From UHGV virus genome UHGV-0216281: a DNA stretch of 10,084 nucleotides; one strand, written 5' to 3'. Shown in pieces: positions 3,577 through 10,084 of this stretch; positions within the stretch are counted from its first letter, which is position 1; each line of letters opens with the position of its first letter. Under the pieces are notes generated by a model. The model was not told the DNA's origin. It saw nothing but the letters and a program-made list of their open reading frames with translations, and ran no database searches. Source of the stretch: a virus. A program made the position numbers and the translations under genes.

Positions 3577-4226
3577 GCCGCCATCTCCCTGACCAGCTTT
3601 TCCGCCTGCAGGCGAACCTGCGCCAGAAACGCCTCACCACATGCCTCAAGTTCATCGCGCCCGATGTAGCTGATTGCCGGTCCCTTCCAGGTCTTGTCGA
3701 AAACAGCAATAGCACCAGCGAAGAAAGCGCCTGTCGGCACCTGCTTCTCATCCTTCGGGATAAACCAGGCAGGCAGTTCAAAACCAATACGCCCGCGAAT
3801 AAAAGCAATATGATCTGCATCTTCCGGCCACCACACTTCGCTGGTGGCAGCTTTGATCAGGAAAACATAGCGCCCGCCCTTATCACGCATGGCACTGGCA
3901 TGCTTCATGATGTAACGCATGCCGGTGATGTATTGCCCCTCATGCTGACTGGCGCGGCTGTATGGGGGATTTCCAAAGGCAGCACCTTTAAGCTCCGCAA
4001 GGCGTTCTGACCAGTCATGCGCCAGCGCGTTGTCTTCCGCCGTGTAATACGCAGCACATTTGGCGTTATCACCGTCAGTGAACAGATCCAGAACAAACGG
4101 ACCAAACAGGGTGTTAATTCCCCAGAAAATGTTGTCCGGCGTGCGCCACTGATCGCCCACTTCCTTCAGTTCATGGGCTGGTTTGTTCCGCAGTTCCACC
4201 AGCTCCTGGCAATATTTATTACTCAT
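3573..4226 (-). CDS. Phage Dam-family DNA N6-adenine methyltransferase
   Basis: Contains the motif IV sequence GNPPYS (NPPY). The ORF track starts at a GTG at 4259 (228 aa), but the ATG at 4226 overlaps the upstream stop as TAATG, which suggests a coupled start giving a 217-aa product. It occupies the position of the yfdM-like methylase in CPS-53-type prophages. Confidence 0.85.
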   Translation of the reverse strand: MSNKYCQELVELRNKPAHELKEVGDQWRTPDNIFWGINTLFGPFVLDLFTDGDNAKCAAYYTAEDNALAHDWSERLAELKGAAFGNPPYSRASQHEGQYITGMRYIMKHASAMRDKGGRYVFLIKAATSEVWWPEDADHIAFIRGRIGFELPAWFIPKDEKQVPTGAFFAGAIAVFDKTWKGPAISYIGRDELEACGEAFLAQVRLQAEKLVREMAA

Positions 4227-4714
4227 TAAGCCCCCACGTAATTCCCTGACAGATACCACTCTTCACCTGATGCAGCCCGCTTACTGCTTTTCCGTAAACA
4301 CCGTTCACGACGCGCCAGAAAATTGTTTCGTTCTGGCTGGGAGTAGCTTTCACGGAATGCCGCCATCCACACCGTTGCAGCACGACGGTATAAGCCCCTG
4401 GACTCCAGTTCTTCCGCCTGGCGGGTCAGGCACAAAATCACCCGGGGATCGTTAGTGCCGACATAGAAATTGCGCACAGGTCTGGTTTCACGAACTGGTT
4501 GTGGTTCCGGCTCCTGCGCTCTCTCAGTCAGGCGTGGGAAATGTCTGCGTGTATCTCCTTCACAACGGTGAGCCACACGCCCACTCTGACGTAACTTGCT
4601 TGCTGACTGCAGAACGCGCTGCCGTGAGTAACCTGCAAAAGCATCCGCAATGTCTCCGGAAGTACAGCCCGGATGGGCTTCAATGAATTTCTGAACGTCA
4701 TTCAAAAGACTCAT
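4226..4714 (-). CDS. YfdN-like protein, possibly PerC-family (C-terminal EELESRGLYRRAATVWMAAF motif)
   Basis: The ORF track gives a GTG at 4720; the ATG at 4714 with a GGGGG RBS is the more likely start (162 aa). It is coupled to the replication gene stop. The PerC-like C-terminal motif is recalled from memory, so the family assignment is tentative. Confidence 0.55.
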   Translation of the reverse strand: MSLLNDVQKFIEAHPGCTSGDIADAFAGYSRQRVLQSASKLRQSGRVAHRCEGDTRRHFPRLTERAQEPEPQPVRETRPVRNFYVGTNDPRVILCLTRQAEELESRGLYRRAATVWMAAFRESYSQPERNNFLARRERCLRKSSKRAASGEEWYLSGNYVGA

Positions 4715-4716
4715 GA

Positions 4717-5658
4717 TCACCCCCTGAATCCTGCCGGGATCTGGCTGTAGTCCACGTTGTCGTAACTGGCTTTGAAGTACGGGTCTTCGCGTTTTTCGGT
4801 GTACGTGCTGACGGACGGCGATAAGCGCAGGGAAAGCTCATCCCATTTTTCCCGCAACTTCGACGGGCTGAGCACGTTACGGCACCAGAACGGATCGCGG
4901 CTGACGCGGCTGTACATCTCGCAGATTTGTTTGTGAGTACGACCATCCTGCACACACATCAGGCGAATTTCGTTTGCCCATGCTGTCCAGTTAGGTTCTT
5001 TGGGACGAACCACCTCGCCGTCACATTCGGCGGCCTGCTCGTACAGGGCGATGATTTTTTTCCAGAGCCACTGTGCGCAGGTCAAATCATCCTGCGTCCC
5101 CCACTGGCGCTTTTTAGGGCTGAATACAACCGCATCAGGATGGCGAGTTAAAAAATCCTGTTCATCCGTCTGCGTGTCCGGTTGCGAAGCGTCCGGACGA
5201 GAAGGTTTTTTATCTGACGGATCATGTTTTGATTTTACTGACGGATCCCCGCCAGATTCTGACGGGTGAAAACCCGCTTTTTTGCCAGATTTCGACGCAT
5301 CAAATTTTGACGGGTCAGATTTTGATGCGTCAGATTTTGACGGGTCAGAATCTGACAGTTGAGAAAATGCCGCTGCCTGAAGCTTCGCAACGTTAAGCTG
5401 ATAAACATTCGACGCATTGCGGTTACCCTGGCGACGCGCCTTACGCGTTAACCAGCCTTCTGCTTCCAGCCGTGCGATAGCCGTTCTGACGGTACTCATC
5501 CCCGCGCCAATCTGACGGGCAATAGTTTCAATTGATGGCCAGCACACACCTTCGTCATTACTGAAATCAGCCAGGCGGGCCATAATTGCCACGCTGGATA
5601 ATTTCATGCCTGACGCAGCGCAACCATCCCATACATAGCCGGTTAATTTAGTGCTCAT
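4717..5658 (-). CDS. Replication initiation protein, lambda O-like (N-terminal winged-helix/HTH, repeat linker, C-terminal domain)
   Basis: 313 aa. The N-terminus SSVAIMARLADFSNDEGVCWPSIETIARQIGAGMSTVRTAIARLEAEGWLTR is typical of phage and plasmid replication initiator HTH domains. The central low-complexity linker SDPSKSDASKSDPSKFDASKS is encoded by DNA tandem repeats. It sits in the O position after cro and cII. Confidence 0.8.
   Translation of the reverse strand: MSTKLTGYVWDGCAASGMKLSSVAIMARLADFSNDEGVCWPSIETIARQIGAGMSTVRTAIARLEAEGWLTRKARRQGNRNASNVYQLNVAKLQAAAFSQLSDSDPSKSDASKSDPSKFDASKSGKKAGFHPSESGGDPSVKSKHDPSDKKPSRPDASQPDTQTDEQDFLTRHPDAVVFSPKKRQWGTQDDLTCAQWLWKKIIALYEQAAECDGEVVRPKEPNWTAWANEIRLMCVQDGRTHKQICEMYSRVSRDPFWCRNVLSPSKLREKWDELSLRLSPSVSTYTEKREDPYFKASYDNVDYSQIPAGFRG
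5254..5358. repeat. Tandem 15-bp direct repeats (consensus AGATTTTGACGGGTC) inside the O-like gene; candidate origin iterons
   Basis: Units at 5254-5268, 5287-5301, 5302-5316, 5317-5331 and 5332-5346 (the last is a perfect match to the consensus), with a partial unit at 5347-5358 and a degenerate copy at 5231-5247. Four units are contiguous. This parallels the lambda ori iterons embedded in the O gene. Confidence 0.55.
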
Positions 5659-5827
5659 GACCGACCTCTATTTCCCTGAATTTACGACGAAACTGTTCGA
5701 GCGGGCTAAAGCACTCATGCTCATAGCCTTCACGGAGGTAGATAACCCGTTGTGTTTCCGGCTCCCAACGAATGACTCTGACGGGCACTCCGTAGTGATC
5801 TTTGAACCAGCGGTTAACTTGTCGCAA
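5648..5827 (-). CDS. Small hypothetical protein (about 60 aa, TTG start) in the alternative frame
   Basis: The frame is open from 5869; a TTG at 5827 is preceded by GGAGA with a 7-nt spacer. The product [59 protein letters not shown] has a globular-looking composition. It overlaps the 112-aa ORF by about 160 nt and the O start by 11 nt. Confidence 0.3.
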
Positions 5828-6006
5828 AGGACTGTCTCCTTCTGCCGGTTGAAATCCCCCACAGCCCACTCAGCAAAGCTGTGGGTTACAATTTCCCTGT
5901 CACCTGGTACATTTACTGCATAGCAATACTCCACCTTCGCTTTTCCACCCGGTACAGGAAGCGCAATCAGTTGCGAGCGACGGTAGTGTGTTGTTAAACT
6001 GTTCAT
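5668..6006 (-). CDS. Hypothetical protein (112-aa ORF), translationally coupled to the cII-like gene
   Basis: The ATG at 6006 overlaps the upstream stop in an ATGA junction, with a GGAGA RBS 9 nt upstream. The N-terminal half looks protein-like; the C-terminal half is Ser-rich and low in complexity. It conflicts with the 5648..5827 frame. Confidence 0.4.
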
Positions 6007-6560
6007 GCGTTAGTTTCTCCACAACCAGAAGCAATCGACGCCACGACGCCCGGAGCTGCACACTCGCGGGCGTCATTACTTTCTGAAACGCAAAAAATTT
6101 TGTAGACAAGTGCTGCATGCTCCTGCAGCTTCGAAATTGAGAGGTACAGCTCGTCGTTAATTGCTGTCTTCTCATGCGGTTCCACTACACCGTCTTCGAT
6201 TGCCGAACGAATCTGTTTTGAATAACTGCCGATCTGTTCAATGACTTCCAGTAAACGCTGGTTAATATCGGCATTGTCCACATCCTCGACGTCAGGAAGA
6301 GACACAAAGACGCCATTTGCAGACTGCGCCACAGCGTCAGCAATGAAGTGAGTGCCACCAGCACGTTGTAAAATCATTGCCCATCCCAGCGGGAAAATCT
6401 GATCGCCATCGGCACGAAGGCGGTTAAATAATGCGTTCTCTGTTACATCCAGCCACTCAGCAGCTTCAGCGTAACCCCCCGGCAACGCCGCGATAGTTTT
6501 TCTGACAGCTTTCACGTACCACTCAGGCTGTTTTTCCACTTTCCAGTGATGATTACCCAC
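6003..6560 (-). CDS. cII-position regulator (YdaT/CP76-like)
   Basis: 185 aa from a GTG start with a perfect AGGAGG RBS and 6-nt spacer. It overlaps the cro-like stop by 8 nt. It sits directly after cro, as ydaT follows ydaS in the Rac prophage. The family assignment rests on position and recollection. Confidence 0.55.
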
Positions 6561-6813
6561 GGCTTACCTCCTGTTCCTGTGGTTTAAACCCATTCTGGTT
6601 TTGGCTAGATTGAAAACGTGCCGGATAAAGAATCTGCATTTCGCTGATTTCACCCTTAAAAAAATTGGCCAGACGTTCTGCAAGATCGATAGATGGAATT
6701 TGTTCCAGTCTTTCAATACGACTCAGCGTCGCTGGATTGACCTGAACGCCAGCAGCAACATGCTGCAAAGTAAATCCGTGCGCCTTACGCACATTCCGTA
6801 ATGGTGATTGCAT
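6553..6813 (-). CDS. cro: Cro-like HTH regulator (YdaS-like)
   Basis: 86 aa, transcribed divergently from the repressor gene. HTH segment GFTLQHVAAGVQVNPATLSRIERL. GGAGG RBS with a short 4-nt spacer. Confidence 0.75.
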   Translation of the reverse strand: MQSPLRNVRKAHGFTLQHVAAGVQVNPATLSRIERLEQIPSIDLAERLANFFKGEISEMQILYPARFQSSQNQNGFKPQEQEVSRG

Positions 6814-6825
6814 ATGACCTCCACA

Positions 6826-6906
6826 TATTGCGTGATAAGCATATTATTTCACGCAAATATTTTGCGCAAGTTGATTTGCTTAACGCGCAATAAAGAAATG
6901 TAATAA
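6826..6906. promoter_or_regulatory. Divergent cI/cro control region: operator-like repeats and candidate pR and pRM promoters
   Basis: 15-bp motif TTGC(A/T)TA-N3-CGCAA at 6876-6890 (plus) and 6828-6842 (minus orientation, ATGCTTATCACGCAA). Extra half-sites TCACGCAA (6849-6856) and palindromic TTGCGCAA (6862-6869) give two TTGCG-N19-CGCAA symmetric units. Candidate pR on the minus strand: -35 TTGCGC (6869..6864), -10 TAATAT (6846..6841). Candidate pRM on the plus strand: -35 TTGCTT (6876-6881), -10 TGTAAT (6899-6904), giving a near-leaderless cI mRNA. Confidence 0.5.
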
Positions 6907-6910
6907 ACGC

Positions 6911-7603
6911 ATGAACATAGGAAACCGAGTCAGACAACTTCGCCAGGCGAAGAACATGAAAATCGCCGATCTCGCTGAAGCAATAGGAGTGGATGCGGCG
7001 AATATCTCACGCCTGGAAACAGGTAAGCAGAAACAATTCACTGAACAAGCCCTGAGTAATATTGCCAGGAGCTTAGGTGTTGATATTGCTGATCTCTTTA
7101 CCTCAGACTTCAAAAGTAATACTGTATGTAAAAACAGTATTAGTGAGGATGTTGCGCAGGTGAAGGATGTATTCCGTATTGAAATGCTGGATGTCAGTGC
7201 CAGTGCGGGAAATGGCCTTATCCAGGGCGGTGATGTCATTGATGTGATTCATGCCATTGAATACAGAACTGATAATGCTGTATCGATGTTTGGCGGACGG
7301 CCAGCCAATCACATTAAAGTTATCAACGTTCGTGGGGACAGTATGTGTCCAACCATTGAGCCAGGAGATCTCATCTTCGTTGATGTCAGTATCAATCAGT
7401 TTGATGGAGATGGTATCTATGTATTTGGTTTTGATGATAAAATTTATGTCAAACGACTGCAAATGATACCTGACAAACTACTGGTGATTTCTGATAACCA
7501 GATTTACCGTGAATGGGGAATTACCAGCGAAAATGAACACCGGTTTATGGTCTTTGGAAAGGTCTTAATCAGCCAGTCACAAACCCTTAAGCGACACAAT
7601 TAA
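6911..7603 (+). CDS. cI: cI-type prophage repressor (N-terminal HTH, C-terminal S24 LexA-like autopeptidase)
   Basis: 230 aa. The N-terminal HTH is IADLAEAIGVDAANISRLETGK. The C-terminus carries the S24 catalytic Ser motif GDSMCPT and the Lys in YVKRL. No Shine-Dalgarno precedes the ATG, consistent with a leaderless message. Confidence 0.9.
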   Translation: MNIGNRVRQLRQAKNMKIADLAEAIGVDAANISRLETGKQKQFTEQALSNIARSLGVDIADLFTSDFKSNTVCKNSISEDVAQVKDVFRIEMLDVSASAGNGLIQGGDVIDVIHAIEYRTDNAVSMFGGRPANHIKVINVRGDSMCPTIEPGDLIFVDVSINQFDGDGIYVFGFDDKIYVKRLQMIPDKLLVISDNQIYREWGITSENEHRFMVFGKVLISQSQTLKRHN

Positions 7604-7623
7604 CCCTTACCTCCTCATCAATT

Positions 7624-7648
7624 AGCCACCCAAAGGTGGCTTTTCATT
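7624..7648 (+). terminator. Intrinsic terminator downstream of the repressor gene
   Basis: Stem agccacc / ggtggct with loop caaa, followed by TTTT(C)ATT. It lies 20 bp after the cI stop. Confidence 0.6.
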
Positions 7649-7658
7649 ACCCTTTAAA

Positions 7659-7711
7659 TTGCATATCTCGCAACAAAAACACTTGCATAATGCGCAACTT
7701 CATTTTATCTT
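7659..7711 (+). promoter_or_regulatory. OL/pL-like region: two copies of the 15-bp operator motif plus a candidate leftward promoter
   Basis: TTGCATATCTCGCAA (7659-7673) and TTGCATAATGCGCAA (7683-7697) match the motif seen in the cI/cro region. Candidate -35 TTGCAT (7683-7688), 17-nt spacer, -10 TATCTT (7706-7711). Confidence 0.4.
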
Positions 7712-8121
7712 TCTTTCCAGACAAACAAACAAGGTACTAACAAAATTTGGTTGTAACACGGCGTATGGCACATGCGTCGTTAGCGGTCTGGGGACGTTAA
7801 AGGGGACAATCCACTCCTTGCTCGGGCAAACAAACCAGGTAGCCGGAATGTGCAAGTCAATGATGATGCTGATAAGACGCCTAACCAGCGTGGCGATTCG
7901 GTTTGACGCCTGGGAAGAGACCAGGGTGCAACGATGAGGGCATTTATGGAGCCGCGACAAAGTGTGGTGCTGTAACTGGCTAAGTGCTCTCAGCGTTGTG
8001 GTAATCCGCGAAATGGCGCGGCGGTAAGTATGGCGGGGTTACTCTTTCCCCGTTGAGGACACCGGATTGTCAGGTTGACCATACGCCTGAGTGACAAGCC
8101 CACCACAACAGCCACTGCTTT

Positions 8122-8168
8122 GGCGGTACCAGTTTGTACACTTGCTTCCGGCTGGTACCGCTCTTTTT
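8122..8168 (+). terminator. Terminator-like hairpin with a T-run (tL1-like), overlapping a boxA-like CGCTCTT core
   Basis: Stem ggcggtaccag (8122-8132) pairs with ctggtaccgc(t) (8152-8162) around a 19-nt loop, followed by CTCTTTTT. CGCTCTT at 8159-8165 matches the core of lambda nut boxA (CGCTCTTA). The loop is large for a canonical terminator. Confidence 0.4.
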
Positions 8169-8257
8169 ACAAAACAGAGAAGAGCATCACCGGACGACGG
8201 GCTCATAACCCAATCCATCCGGGCGGCTGCCACCGCAGGTGTTCTTCTCTGTTTTGT
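8169..8257 (+). repeat. Long-range inverted repeat (15 bp perfect, extendable to about 20 bp with G-U pairs) enclosing about 50 nt, immediately upstream of the yfdP-like start
   Basis: acaaaacagagaaga (8169-8183) is the exact reverse complement of tcttctctgttttgt (8243-8257). Pairing continues through 8188/8238 if G-U pairs are allowed. The interior contains a further small hairpin, gcgg-ctgcca-ccgc. Confidence 0.6.
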
Positions 8258-8305
8258 GGAGAAACCAACCGACCTTGCAGGGTCGATATGATGAGGAGCA
8301 GCAAA

Positions 8306-8668
8306 ATGGCTAGCGAACGCAGTACTGATGTGCAGGCATTTATCGGGGAGCTGGACGGCGGCGTATTTGAAACCAAAATCGGCGCAGTTCTCAGTGAAGT
8401 CGCTTCCGGTGTGATGAACACAAAAACCAAAGGTAAGGTCTCACTCAACCTGGAAATCGAACCATTTGATGAGAACCGTGTGAAAATCAAACACAAACTC
8501 TCATATGTTCGCCCGACTAACCGCGGGAAAATTTCCGAAGAAGACACCACCGAAACGCCGATGTATGTCAATCGCGGTGGTCGCCTGACTATTCTGCAGG
8601 AAGACCAGGGACAATTACTGACTCTTGCCGGTGAACCTGACGGAAAACTACGCGCAGCAGGTCATTAA
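8306..8668 (+). CDS. yfdP: YfdP-like protein (120 aa, unknown function)
   Basis: ATG at 8306 preceded by an AGGAG RBS with a 7-nt spacer. The ORF-track extension back to 8075 (TTG start) has non-protein-like composition and no RBS. The 120-aa size and the order with the following 274-aa and HD-domain genes match yfdP-yfdQ-yfdR of CPS-53 as I recall them. Confidence 0.65.
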   Translation: MASERSTDVQAFIGELDGGVFETKIGAVLSEVASGVMNTKTKGKVSLNLEIEPFDENRVKIKHKLSYVRPTNRGKISEEDTTETPMYVNRGGRLTILQEDQGQLLTLAGEPDGKLRAAGH

Positions 8669-8733
8669 TATCGTTCTTAATTAACTGATTATTTATCTCA
8701 TCACTGAATATCTTTATATAGTGAGGACTTATT

Positions 8734-9558
8734 ATGTCTCAGAACTTAGACGCAACCGCAATTAATCAAATCCATGCCCTTATTTCTGCTCAGGGTGTTA
8801 ATGAAATTATCAGTAAGATTGGTGCCGATGCTGTGGCATTGCCTGAGAATTTCCGCATTCATGATCTGGAAAAATTTAATTTAAATCGCTTCCGTTTCCG
8901 TGGCGCGCTTTCCACTGCCAGCATCGATGATTTTACCCGTTATTCTAAAGATCTTGCGGATGAAGGCACCCGCTGCTTTATCGATGCCGATAATATGCGT
9001 GCCGTCAGTGTGCTTAACCTGGGTACTATTGATGAGCCTGGTCACGCAGATAACACCGCCACTCTCAAACTGAAAAAGACAGCACCGTTCTCTGCTCTGT
9101 TGTCTGTTAACGGCGAGCGTAACTCCCAGAAGTCACTGGCAGAATGGATTGAAGACTGGGCCGACTACCTTGTGGGCTTTGATGCTAATGGTGATGCCAT
9201 TCAGGCAACAAAAGCGGCTGCGGCAGTCCGTAAAATCACGATTGAAGCAAACCAGACCGCTGATTTTGAAGACAATGACTTCAGCGGCAAACGCTCCCTG
9301 ATGGAGTCTGTCGAAGCGAAGACCAAAGATATTATGCCAGTGGCATTTGAATTTAAATGCGTTCCGTTTGAAGGCCTGAAAGAACGTCCGTTTAAATTAC
9401 GCCTCAGCATTATCACTGGCGATCGTCCTGTACTGGTTCTGCGCATTATTCAGCTGGAAGCAGTGCAGGAAGAAATGGCTAACGAATTTCGTGATCTGCT
9501 TGTTGAGAAATTCAAGGACAGCAAAGTAGAAACCTTTATTGGTACTTTTACCGCCTGA
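8734..9558 (+). CDS. yfdQ: YfdQ-like protein (274 aa, DUF2303-like, unknown function)
   Basis: ATG with a GAGGA RBS and 6-nt spacer. A clean 274-aa ORF with no competing frames. Identity is inferred from size and synteny. Confidence 0.7.
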
Positions 9559-9570
9559 TTTCATTACTGC

Positions 9571-9592
9571 AAATGCCCCTGCGGGGGCATTT
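9571..9592 (+). terminator. Palindromic hairpin after the yfdQ-like gene (weak terminator or attenuator)
   Basis: aaatgcccc - tgcg - ggggcattt, a 9-bp stem. The downstream U-tract is poor (TTTATGG), so termination is probably partial. Confidence 0.35.
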
Positions 9593-9685
9593 ATGGAAAC
9601 GTAATTGACTCAATAATCGCCGGATGGTGAGGGCTTTCTTTTACCAGAATTCAGCGCGGTGCAGCGCATATACGTGGAGAACAAA

Positions 9686-10084
9686 ATGTCATTTATTAAA
9701 ACTTTTTCCGGGAAGCATTTTTATTATGACAGGATAAATAAAGACGACATCGTTATTAACGATATCGCGGTTTCTCTTTCAAATATCTGTCGCTTTGCAG
9801 GACATCTTTCACATTTCTACAGCGTCGCCCAACATGCGGTGCTTTGCAGCCAACTGGTACCGCAGGAATTTGCTTTTGAAGCGTTAATGCATGATGCAAC
9901 AGAAGCGTATTGCCAGGACATCCCGGCGCCACTGAAACGCCTTCTTCCTGACTATAAACGGATGGAAGAAAAAATAGACGCCGTAATCCGTGAGAAATAC
10001 GGGTTACCCCCGGTTATGAGTACGCCCGTGAAATATGCCGATCTCATCATGCTGGCAACCGAACGCCGCGATCTCGGGCTTGAT
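9686..10084 (+). CDS. yfdR: HD-domain phosphohydrolase, YfdR-like 5'-deoxynucleotidase (3' end truncated by the window)
   Basis: My own translation from the ATG at 9686 (GGAGA RBS, 5-nt spacer) gives MSFIKTFSGKHFYYD... with an HD-domain His (SVAQHAVL) and HD motif (LMHDATEAY). The frame is open to the window end, 133 codons. Confidence 0.85.
   Translation, partial: MSFIKTFSGKHFYYDRINKDDIVINDIAVSLSNICRFAGHLSHFYSVAQHAVLCSQLVPQEFAFEALMHDATEAYCQDIPAPLKRLLPDYKRMEEKIDAVIREKYGLPPVMSTPVKYADLIMLATERRDLGLD

Follow-up and report, generated by a model that had tools for sequence, protein, structure and literature searches.

The yfdP-yfdQ-yfdR module as the apparent opening of the early-left operon in an SfV/SfII/CPS-53-type lambdoid prophage

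What do the genes that follow the repressor of a lambdoid prophage contribute to the phage, and do they bear on the replication of its host? The question arises at the end of the window analysed here (the whole 10,084-nt stretch, from virus genome UHGV-0216281), where three co-oriented open reading frames were found on the + strand: yfdP (8306-8668, 120 aa), with the Shine-Dalgarno sequence GAGGAG 7 nt 5' of its start; yfdQ (8734-9558, 274 aa); and yfdR (9686-10084), the 5' 133 of 178 codons of a gene for an HD-domain phosphohydrolase with DnaA binding predicted by K-12 homology. The yfdR frame is open to the window end at codon 133, and the later genes—yfdS/yfdT or others—lie outside the window; the full-length protein has 178 aa (F200) or 174 aa (H1) in the closest relatives. 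The original prediction that these are homologs of YfdP, YfdQ and YfdR was borne out by 99% identity to all three K-12 proteins. In a protein sequence comparison, YfdP was identical to its K-12 counterpart at 119 of 120 positions (E 3e-90), YfdQ at 272 of 274, and the yfdR frame at 132 of the first 133 residues of the 178-aa K-12 YfdR, the one change being K16R. A PHROG profile search assigned YfdP to phrog_204 (1.2e-49), a family of no assigned function; the Pfam release used was without the PF27127 model, and placement in that family comes via the homologues, all of which carry it. YfdQ belongs to phrog_210 and matches DUF2303 (PF10065) over residues 7-272 with 309.7 bits (2e-92), the cut-off being 26.6. 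Moreover, in more than 1,100 complete E. coli genomes the matching DNA bears RefSeq annotations for these three genes. Judged by these alignments, the likeness is one of homology and not of chance, and the identity of the module as yfdP-yfdQ-yfdR is essentially certain. The cluster, its early-left location in lambdoid phages and the link between YfdR and DnaA have all been published already.

YfdP and YfdQ had been described as functionally uncharacterized, which agrees with the literature, where neither has a known function (PMC12315714); structurally, however, a homologue of YfdQ exists as PDB entry 9O7M ('YfdQ Protein', 36 chains), 38% identical at E 1.2e-44 in the PDB sequence file. A literature search found no paper citing 9O7M. 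Structure prediction, proposed in the original prediction for both proteins, was carried out and gave a fold match for neither: the AlphaFold2 model of YfdQ reached a moderate pLDDT of 72.6 and returned nothing at E ≤ 0.001 in a Foldseek search against the PDB, and the model of YfdP (pLDDT 67.4), again with no match, combines one long helix with a sheet of three strands and leaves the C-terminus disordered.

Upstream of the three genes, the repressor, the divergent cro and cII genes and the operator copies support the claim of an apparently intact immunity context in which the cluster lies downstream of pL. A cI-type prophage repressor with HTH and S24 peptidase domains (6911-7603, +) was recognized on the strand of yfdPQR by Pfam matches to Peptidase_S24 (6.5e-19) and HTH_3/HTH_26/HTH_31; in RefSeq, its counterparts in relatives are named 'XRE family transcriptional regulator'. 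A terminator scan placed an intrinsic-terminator-like hairpin, which would end the cI transcript, at 7624-7641 (+; fold -11.8 kcal/mol, z -4.7, followed by UUUUC)—a position at which a putative terminator is annotated in SfV and SfII. The ORF map and Pfam place cro and a cII-like gene in divergent orientation from the cI/yfdPQR strand. The operator motif TTGCN7GCAA has three matches in the window (6876, 7659 and 7683) against 0.38 expected, and five against 0.56 when mismatches are allowed; one copy lies between cI and cro (6876) and two lie just past cI, where a motif search delimits putative OL copies (7659-7697, +) as TTGCATATCTCGCAA (7659-7673) and TTGCATAATGCGCAA (7683-7697). A weak candidate for pL, TTGCAT-17 nt-TATCTT (7683-7711, +), was read by eye, with its -35 element inside the second operator; a consensus promoter scan called no + strand promoter at 7683-7711, and the -35 element matches at 3 of 6 positions. 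Transcription from this candidate would start near 7718. Phages with other immunity types are homologous from about 7739 on, just 3' of it, and the pL leader spans about 600 nt. The operon thus shares the repressor strand, runs divergently from cro, cII and the replication genes, and is preceded by operators, a layout from which the yfdP-yfdQ-yfdR module is read as the opening of the early-left (pL) operon of an SfV/SfII/CPS-53-type lambdoid prophage. Its resemblance to the lambda early-left operon lies in repressor control, leftward orientation on the cI strand, early terminators and, in relatives, a xis-int end. Lambda differs in carrying N, nut and exo/bet/gam; here, a long structured leader stands where lambda has N, no convincing ORF for an N-like antiterminator was found in 7604-8305, and no nut-like site was recognized in the early-left operon.

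An intact immunity context around the trio is not new, being already present in SfV (2002 record), SfII, mEp460 and cdtI and explicit in PMC12315714, which also finds the trio gene types fairly common in the lambdoid early-left operon. SfV (orf32-orf31-orf30), SfII, SfIV, mEp460, cdtI and Stx2c-converting phages are viable and carry the same trio on the cI strand past cI, with 97.6-98.4% DNA identity across the trio in these Shigella and E. coli phages. In SfV the order is cI, terminator, orf32/31/30 (yfdP/Q/R), orf29/28 (yfdS/T), xis and int, and SfII and mEp460 are arranged likewise; the cI, cro and cII of SfII are equal in length to those of the window. The SfV leader differs, with orf33 and another annotated terminator in place of a 176-nt RNA element, whereas cdtI and Stx2c phages have the leader in common from 7739 onward but possess other immunity regions. 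The last 185 nt of the leader are common to SfIV/SfV-type phages. More distantly, the three gene types occur in the early-left operon of ST64B (gp35-37) and LLS (gp37-39), members of the 'no Rec module' group of PMC12315714; the ST64B YfdR is 67% identical, and the ST64B and LLS proteins are more divergent.

The order yfdP>yfdQ>yfdR was kept in all 80 viral contigs whose sequence extended far enough, in a census that drew on 100%-identical E. coli prophage copies, the only ones that a related-locus search for distant DUF2303 contexts returned. Prophages of Yersinia ruckeri maintain the trio order at 57-60% identity, and in Xenorhabdus the yfdP-yfdQ pair directly follows an S24 repressor. Downstream of yfdR, relatives that share this cI and leader carry yfdS plus a DUF551 protein, yfdS alone or yfdS plus yfdT, and others of this group carry the DUF551 protein alone, an unknown 288-aa protein or nothing recognized. 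The trio is invariant where sequence suffices; what is swapped around it is the immunity region, the leader and whatever genes come after yfdR.

What the module does is less settled, and we give about even chances to a mechanism of host takeover. In a lysogen, the cI-type repressor would keep pL off; upon induction or infection, the pL transcript would run through the structured leader (600 nt) and past one or more terminator-like hairpins, and YfdP, YfdQ, YfdR and their downstream partners would then be expressed as an early host-takeover set. This set would damp initiation on the host chromosome and/or reshape the dNMP pool, while the phage O-type initiator fires at its own iteron origin. 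The mechanism draws on experiments in K-12, and the original account of them was correct: multicopy yfdQ-yfdR-yfdS-yfdT inhibits initiation at oriC, and YfdR binds DnaA domain I with purified proteins, DnaA Phe46 being important (Noguchi & Katayama 2016, PMC4776307). A requirement is to be added to that account, as inhibition needs yfdQ and yfdR plus yfdS or yfdT, with yfdP dispensable (PMC4776307); of this set, yfdQ and yfdR are present in the window. The literature further describes moderate competition from K-12 YfdR with DiaA and DnaB at DnaA. If confirmed in a real induction, a phage-borne inhibitor of the DnaA-DnaB/DiaA contacts would be a simple means of host takeover. Several points speak against it, however: the K-12 effect is limited to multicopy or overexpressed genes, deletion of yfdQRST in K-12 has no phenotype, and purified YfdR alone gave no inhibition in an in vitro unwinding assay (all PMC4776307). 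Moreover, yfdS and yfdT are variable in relatives, the pL hexamers are weak, an N-like gene was not found, and phages of very distant hosts also possess YfdR-type HD proteins.

That last observation makes nucleotide-pool manipulation a serious rival role, if one still on the unlikely side: YfdR would act enzymatically, as an HD-domain dNMP phosphatase that alters the deoxynucleotide pool in the early phase of infection, its binding to DnaA would be a by-product of overproduction peculiar to E. coli, and YfdP and YfdQ would be either accessory factors or neighbours with no relation to it. The pre-early deoxynucleoside monophosphatase of phage T5 offers a model for such manipulation. By tblastn, relatives of YfdR were found in 333 phage records with hosts including Bacillus, Caulobacter, Rhizobium, Vibrio, Pseudomonas and Stenotrophomonas; large virulent phages are among the carriers, and many of the proteins are annotated as deoxyribonucleoside 5'-monophosphate phosphatase. 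It is unlikely that binding to DnaA domain I is conserved in the Bacillus, Caulobacter, Rhizobium, Vibrio and Pseudomonas hosts. Aligned to the HD protein Atu1052 (PDB 2GZ4; E 1.3e-13, residues 18-175), the yfdR frame retains all four HD metal ligands (His50, His69-Asp70 and Asp119), in the H...HD...D arrangement of the fold family to which E. coli YfbR and Atu1052 belong. Additionally, phrog_318, 'deoxyribonucleoside 5' monophosphate phosphatase', matches YfdR at 1.5e-109, the RefSeq gene name is 5'-deoxynucleotidase, K-12 YfdR is described as an HD phosphohydrolase whose 5'-deoxynucleotidase activity is weak, and the inactivity of the purified protein in the unwinding assay fits an enzymatic role as well.

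The view of YfdR as an HD-type 5'-deoxynucleotidase holds for the ligands and the phrog_318 match but is weakened by the models for YfbR, both of which score below their cut-offs: 24.3 bits against 25.9 for the Pfam YfbR-like family PF12917, and 19.9 against 122 for the NCBIfam 5'-deoxynucleotidase equivalog NF003009. By these profile scores YfdR is to be read as a related HD protein and not as the YfbR equivalog—and DnaA binding is known for YfdR only. Its nucleotide affinities are also far below YfbR's (Zimmerman 2008, as cited in PMC4776307), and the interaction with DnaA is specific, in that it depends on Phe46 and is seen with purified proteins (PMC4776307). Finally, conservation of the yfdP-yfdQ-yfdR order down to about 60% identity in Yersinia suggests that the three proteins act together, contrary to a purely enzymatic role of YfdR.

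A further rival, which we regard as quite improbable, holds that yfdP, yfdQ and yfdR are moron-like genes expressed from the prophage for the stress tolerance of the lysogen and not for lytic growth. In its favour, deletions of CPS-53, of yfdQ alone or of yfdS alone raise H2O2 sensitivity in K-12 (cited in PMC4776307), and SrsR, a stationary-phase regulator, binds to the spacer between yfdO and yfdP and acts as an activator of yfdPQ (PMC9181523), two genes treated as one operon in the K-12 literature (PMC9181523). The K-12 prophage CPS-53 (KpLE1) resembles the window closely, with YfdP, YfdQ and YfdR(1-133) 99% identical, the same gene order and spacing, and 97% DNA identity over window positions 8287-10084. 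It corresponds, however, to the module of the window minus a clean 2,861-bp deletion (window 5426-8286), by which the 5' part of the O-like gene, a DUF4222 gene, the cII-like gene, cro, cI, OL/pL and the whole leader are missing. The phage origin iterons, TCAGATTTTGA, at window 5252-5355 are the SrsR boxes, and the deletion lands them beside yfdP in K-12—so that the K-12 regulation is an accident of the deletion. Because K-12 lacks cI, OL/pL and the leader, SrsR control of expression at the iterons does not apply here; in the intact layout, cI, the operators, the cI terminator and a terminator-containing leader stand between such sites and the genes, and a promoter scan found no + strand promoter-like site in 7712-8305. 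Since the genes of an intact phage are under cI/pL control and the K-12 results were obtained with a prophage that bears a deletion, neither the K-12 regulation nor its 'stress-tolerance' reading should be transferred; beyond this, the finding adds little.

The weakest rival, a cryptic recombination or repair module in place of lambda exo-bet-gam, is highly improbable: the trio does occupy the early-left position of the lambda recombination genes, and a yfdQ deletion is mildly sensitive to both MMS and H2O2 (cited in PMC4776307), but the cluster is also carried by phages, such as ArgO145, whose Rec module is complete and separate (PMC12315714), shows no Pfam, PHROG or fold similarity to a recombinase, exonuclease or Gam, and was judged unlikely to encode unrecognized recombination proteins by PMC12315714, which examined the trio for possible recombination functions and not for replication control; this role was rejected. 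A defence or anti-defence role was likewise set aside, with no PADLOC match for YfdP, Q, R, S or T.

The undescribed part of the operon is its leader, not its genes, and the widespread structured RNA in it may be the more useful lead. Three hairpins were identified by folding on the + strand. The first (8122-8168) is terminator-like, with a 13-bp stem, GGCGGUACCAGUU/GGCUGGUACCGCU, followed by UCUUUUU (fold -21.2 kcal/mol, z -4.3), and was missed by the terminator scan because its loop exceeds 8 nt. The second (8168-8258) is long and near-perfect, with a 21-bp stem, and lies 48 nt 5' of the yfdP start (-47.3 kcal/mol, z -6.8), and is possibly an RNase III-type processing site. The third, GC-rich and located between yfdQ and yfdR (9571-9592; -16.5 kcal/mol, z -3.4), is a candidate attenuator or RNA-stabilizer.

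Further upstream, the leader contains a 176-nt element (7757-7932, +) with strong covariation and no annotation or Rfam family, which is very probably a genuine structured RNA. Its covariance model (R1) scores 183 bits at a single copy in the window, and the share of cells that pair in the alignment (A5) is 94.3%, as opposed to 32-47% in slid controls, with 10 pairs showing changes on both sides. Two covarying helices pair 7882-7885 with 7893-7896 and 7914-7918 with 7926-7930, and a GCACA/UGUGC pseudoknot is proposed. The support for a structure comes from this covariation and not from folding energy, the single-sequence MFE being unexceptional (z -1.2). An Rfam 15 cmscan of the whole window and of 7640-8310 gave nothing but spurious hits, none in the latter better than E 0.034 (11.6 bits) and those to unrelated eukaryotic families; ARAGORN found no tRNA or tmRNA in the leader; the model found no copy in the HK022 immunity region, SfV, SfII or K-12 CPS-53; and a literature search found no paper printing the conserved sequence blocks. 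A new cis-acting phage RNA with a regulatory role, e.g., a processive antiterminator, is an unlikely proposal. Such an antiterminator might work on the principle of HK022 put or Bacillus EAR, with a sequence unrelated to both—a parallel we consider doubtful. It would, on the same slender expectation, let pL transcripts pass the 8122-8168 and 9571-9592 hairpins into yfdPQR, and it would have been put to use again ahead of ban in P1 and next to the tRNA genes of other phages. About one in three complete E. coli genomes contains the element itself; it also adjoins tRNAs in P1/P7 and Uetakevirus phages, and in P1 it lies in the ban leader.

The window represents a lambdoid prophage's early region. 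Its minus strand carries a Q-type antiterminator gene (272-1030; ORF map and Pfam), genes for DUF968, KilA-N, RusA, LexA-like, Dam methylase and YfdN/PerC-like proteins, an O-type replication gene (4717-5658), a cII-like gene (6003-6560) and a cro-like gene (6553-6813). Directly downstream of the antiterminator gene, we observed a full-length match to STnc490—an Hfq-binding sRNA in Rfam—at 6-129 on the minus strand (143.9 bits; gathering score 56), the position expected for a late-promoter leader transcript. The plus strand encodes a cI-type repressor with HTH and S24 domains (6911-7603), followed by the cluster at 8306-10084 that the original prediction had described as yfdP-, yfdQ- and yfdR-like. 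Comparison with the K-12 proteins confirmed this observation: YfdP (8306-8668, 120 aa) is identical at 119 of 120 positions and YfdQ (8734-9558, 274 aa) at 272 of 274, while YfdR (9686-10084), which is open at the window end, matches residues 1-133 of the 178-aa K-12 protein at 132 of 133 positions. A good Shine-Dalgarno sequence can be read before each of the three ORFs, and RefSeq places yfdP, yfdQ and yfdR beneath the match in over 1,100 complete E. coli genomes with at least 80% of window 7600-10084. What the genes are, where they lie in the operon and that the cluster is conserved are all shown.

We also found yfdP-yfdQ-yfdR, at 97.6-98.4% DNA identity, in the viable phages SfV (orf32/31/30), SfII, SfIV, mEp460 and cdtI, as well as in many Stx2c-converting phages and others, and in every case downstream of cI. 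The SfV order runs cI, terminator, orf33, terminator, yfdP, yfdQ, yfdR, yfdS, yfdT, xis and int. Among 80 viral contigs with identical YfdQ, the three genes keep the order yfdP>yfdQ>yfdR without exception wherever sequence suffices. Around the three genes, the repressor type varies, as do the leader (the 176-nt RNA element described below, SfV orf33 or neither) and the genes after yfdR (yfdS, yfdT, another DUF551 protein, a 288-aa unknown or none recognised). Over the whole window, the nearest relative (98.3%) is a complete HK97-like prophage of strain F200, where downstream of yfdR stand a yfdS-like gene, a DUF551 gene, a gene annotated as 'anti-phage dCTP deaminase' and the integrase. At 20794-22389 of the F200 record (L129), past the point that corresponds to the window end, the early-left operon closes with the deaminase gene beside the integrase, so that this prophage type also has a nucleotide-depletion defence gene near the HD phosphatase. 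In strain H1, the 288-aa unknown and xis-int come after yfdR. More distantly, at 57-60% identity, Yersinia ruckeri has an S24 repressor, YfdP and DUF2303 followed by a 60%-identical YfdR, and Xenorhabdus likewise carries a yfdP-yfdQ pair after a repressor. A published survey describes the three gene types as fairly common in early-left operons and yfdQ and yfdP as without known function (PMC12315714). The finding of the cluster is therefore already known.

The proposed placement of the cluster in an intact immunity context, downstream of pL, also held. The cI gene ends with a terminator hairpin (7624-7641), and a motif scan found three copies of the near-palindrome TTGCN7GCAA in the window, where 0.38 would be expected. 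One (6876) lies in the gap between cI and cro, and the other two (7659 and 7683) follow cI closely. The second post-cI copy overlaps a weak promoter-like pair, TTGCAT-17-TATCTT (7683-7711), which was read by eye as the candidate pL; a consensus promoter scan did not report it. From pL to yfdP, an ORF search revealed nothing convincing, and the region 7695-8310 folds strongly (z -5.3) and contains three elements. The first is a 176-nt RNA, and between it and yfdP lie a terminator-like hairpin (8122-8162 within 8122-8168; -21.2 kcal/mol, its 13-bp stem running into UCUUUUU) and, just upstream of yfdP, a long hairpin with a near-perfect 21-bp stem (8168-8258; -47.3 kcal/mol, z -6.8) that could serve as an RNase III site, all on the plus strand. 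The last 185 nt of the leader also occur in SfIV/SfV-type phages.

The 176-nt element (7757-7932, plus strand) is a conserved structured RNA supported by strong covariation. Across 15 diverse copies, 94.3% of cells pair in a six-helix structure, compared with 32-47% with slid partners, and changes on both sides affect 10 pairs (37 cells), compared with 1-4 pairs (2-7 cells) in the slid controls. The clearest helices are a 4-bp stem with the loop (C)U(A/C)ACCA and a 5-bp stem with the loop GAAGAG(A/U), and the plus strand is the one favoured by G-U pairs. An invariant GCACA/UGUGC pairing, which shows no covariation, could form a pseudoknot. The covariance model built on the element (R1) finds a single copy in the window (183 bits) and none in K-12 CPS-53, SfV, SfII or the HK022 immunity region. 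Rfam 15 returned no match for the RNA and ARAGORN no tRNA, and no annotation lies beneath the core match in the 12 records listed; the core turned up in 1,833 out of 5,426 complete E. coli genomes. Related copies (76-83% identity) occur in other phage contexts: in P1/P7-type phages the element follows a tRNA by 13-15 nt and precedes ban by about 94 nt, and in Uetakevirus-type phages it precedes tRNA-Arg by about 67 nt. Further related copies follow cI-type repressors in other prophages, e.g., before xis-int in Citrobacter. Since there is no evident N-like gene and the genes are preceded by terminators, the element may, as an attractive possibility, act in cis in antitermination; equally possible is a stable RNA freed by tRNA-type processing.

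CPS-53, the cryptic prophage of K-12, matches window 3960-5425 and 8287-10084 contiguously, which corresponds to a clean 2,861-bp deletion of 5426-8286 (junction 7586/7587 in the K-12 record, L002) that removed the 5' part of the O-like gene, the cII-like gene, cro, cI, the operators and pL, and the whole leader. The yfdP start lies 18 nt past the junction. Within the O-like gene, at 5252-5355, the phage origin iterons (TCAGATTTTGA repeats with 15-nt spacing at 5285-5355) are exactly the 'SrsR boxes' published for, and footprinted within, the K-12 yfdO/yfdP spacer (PMC9181523). They also produced a spurious Rfam match to mir-5880. As the deletion brought these iterons adjacent to yfdP, the way K-12 regulates yfdPQ follows from that loss of DNA and should not be assumed for the intact phage. 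A GC-rich hairpin in the 127-nt yfdQ-yfdR gap (9571-9592, plus strand; -16.5 kcal/mol) agrees with work in K-12 that treats yfdPQ as a separate transcription unit (PMC9181523) and forms a second obstacle before yfdR for pL transcripts.

In a lysogen, the repressor would keep pL off; after induction, the transcript would cross the 600-nt structured leader into yfdP-yfdQ, pass the 9571-9592 hairpin and continue through yfdR to xis-int, and the products would act early on the host. What the original prediction says of the literature is accurate (PMC4776307), although the label of initiation inhibitor for YfdR abbreviates what is an overexpression phenotype of several genes together. Noguchi and Katayama (2016) isolated the yfd cluster because in multicopy it suppressed hda-185 over-initiation, with yfdQ and yfdR together with yfdS or yfdT as the minimal set and yfdP dispensable; part of this set falls outside the window. 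In the same study, DnaA pulled down YfdR only, purified YfdR bound DnaA (an interaction in which DnaA Phe46 was important), open-complex formation in vitro was inhibited by YfdQRST extracts but not by purified YfdR alone, and deletion of yfdQRST had no initiation effect (PMC4776307). With these caveats, the interpretation is supported, and we consider the chances about even that the cluster takes over the host by interfering with DnaA (YfdQ and a DUF551 partner taking part), by dNMP dephosphorylation, or by both.

The main alternative to the DnaA model is manipulation of the nucleotide pool. YfdR retains the HD ligands His50, His69-Asp70 and Asp119 and matches the HD protein Atu1052 (PDB 2GZ4, E 1.3e-13) and phrog_318, 'deoxyribonucleoside 5' monophosphate phosphatase'; it falls under the cut-offs of both the YfbR-like Pfam model and the NCBIfam equivalog, and its nucleotide affinities lie far below YfbR's (PMC4776307). 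The breadth of its relatives—333 phage records, with hosts including Bacillus, Caulobacter, Rhizobium, Vibrio, Pseudomonas and Stenotrophomonas—argues that its ancestral and conserved role is an enzymatic one, and a purely enzymatic function is a possible, if doubtful, account of the protein. A benefit of yfdPQR to the lysogen appears unlikely. A recombination role is highly improbable, as yfdQ and yfdP are considered unlikely to be hidden recombination genes (PMC12315714).

Host takeover through DnaA would involve YfdQ as well. The predicted model of YfdP (PF27127/phrog_204) combines a single long helix with a three-stranded sheet and a tail that is disordered, and has no structural match. 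PADLOC gave no match for YfdP, YfdQ, YfdR, YfdS or YfdT. YfdQ belongs to DUF2303/phrog_210 and is 38% identical over 255 positions to PDB 9O7M, 'YfdQ Protein', for which we found no citing paper in the literature searched. According to the PDB sequence file, this entry holds 36 chains of a single 274-aa sequence, which suggests a large homo-oligomer. This unexplained structure and the unannotated leader RNA are the leads worth passing on.
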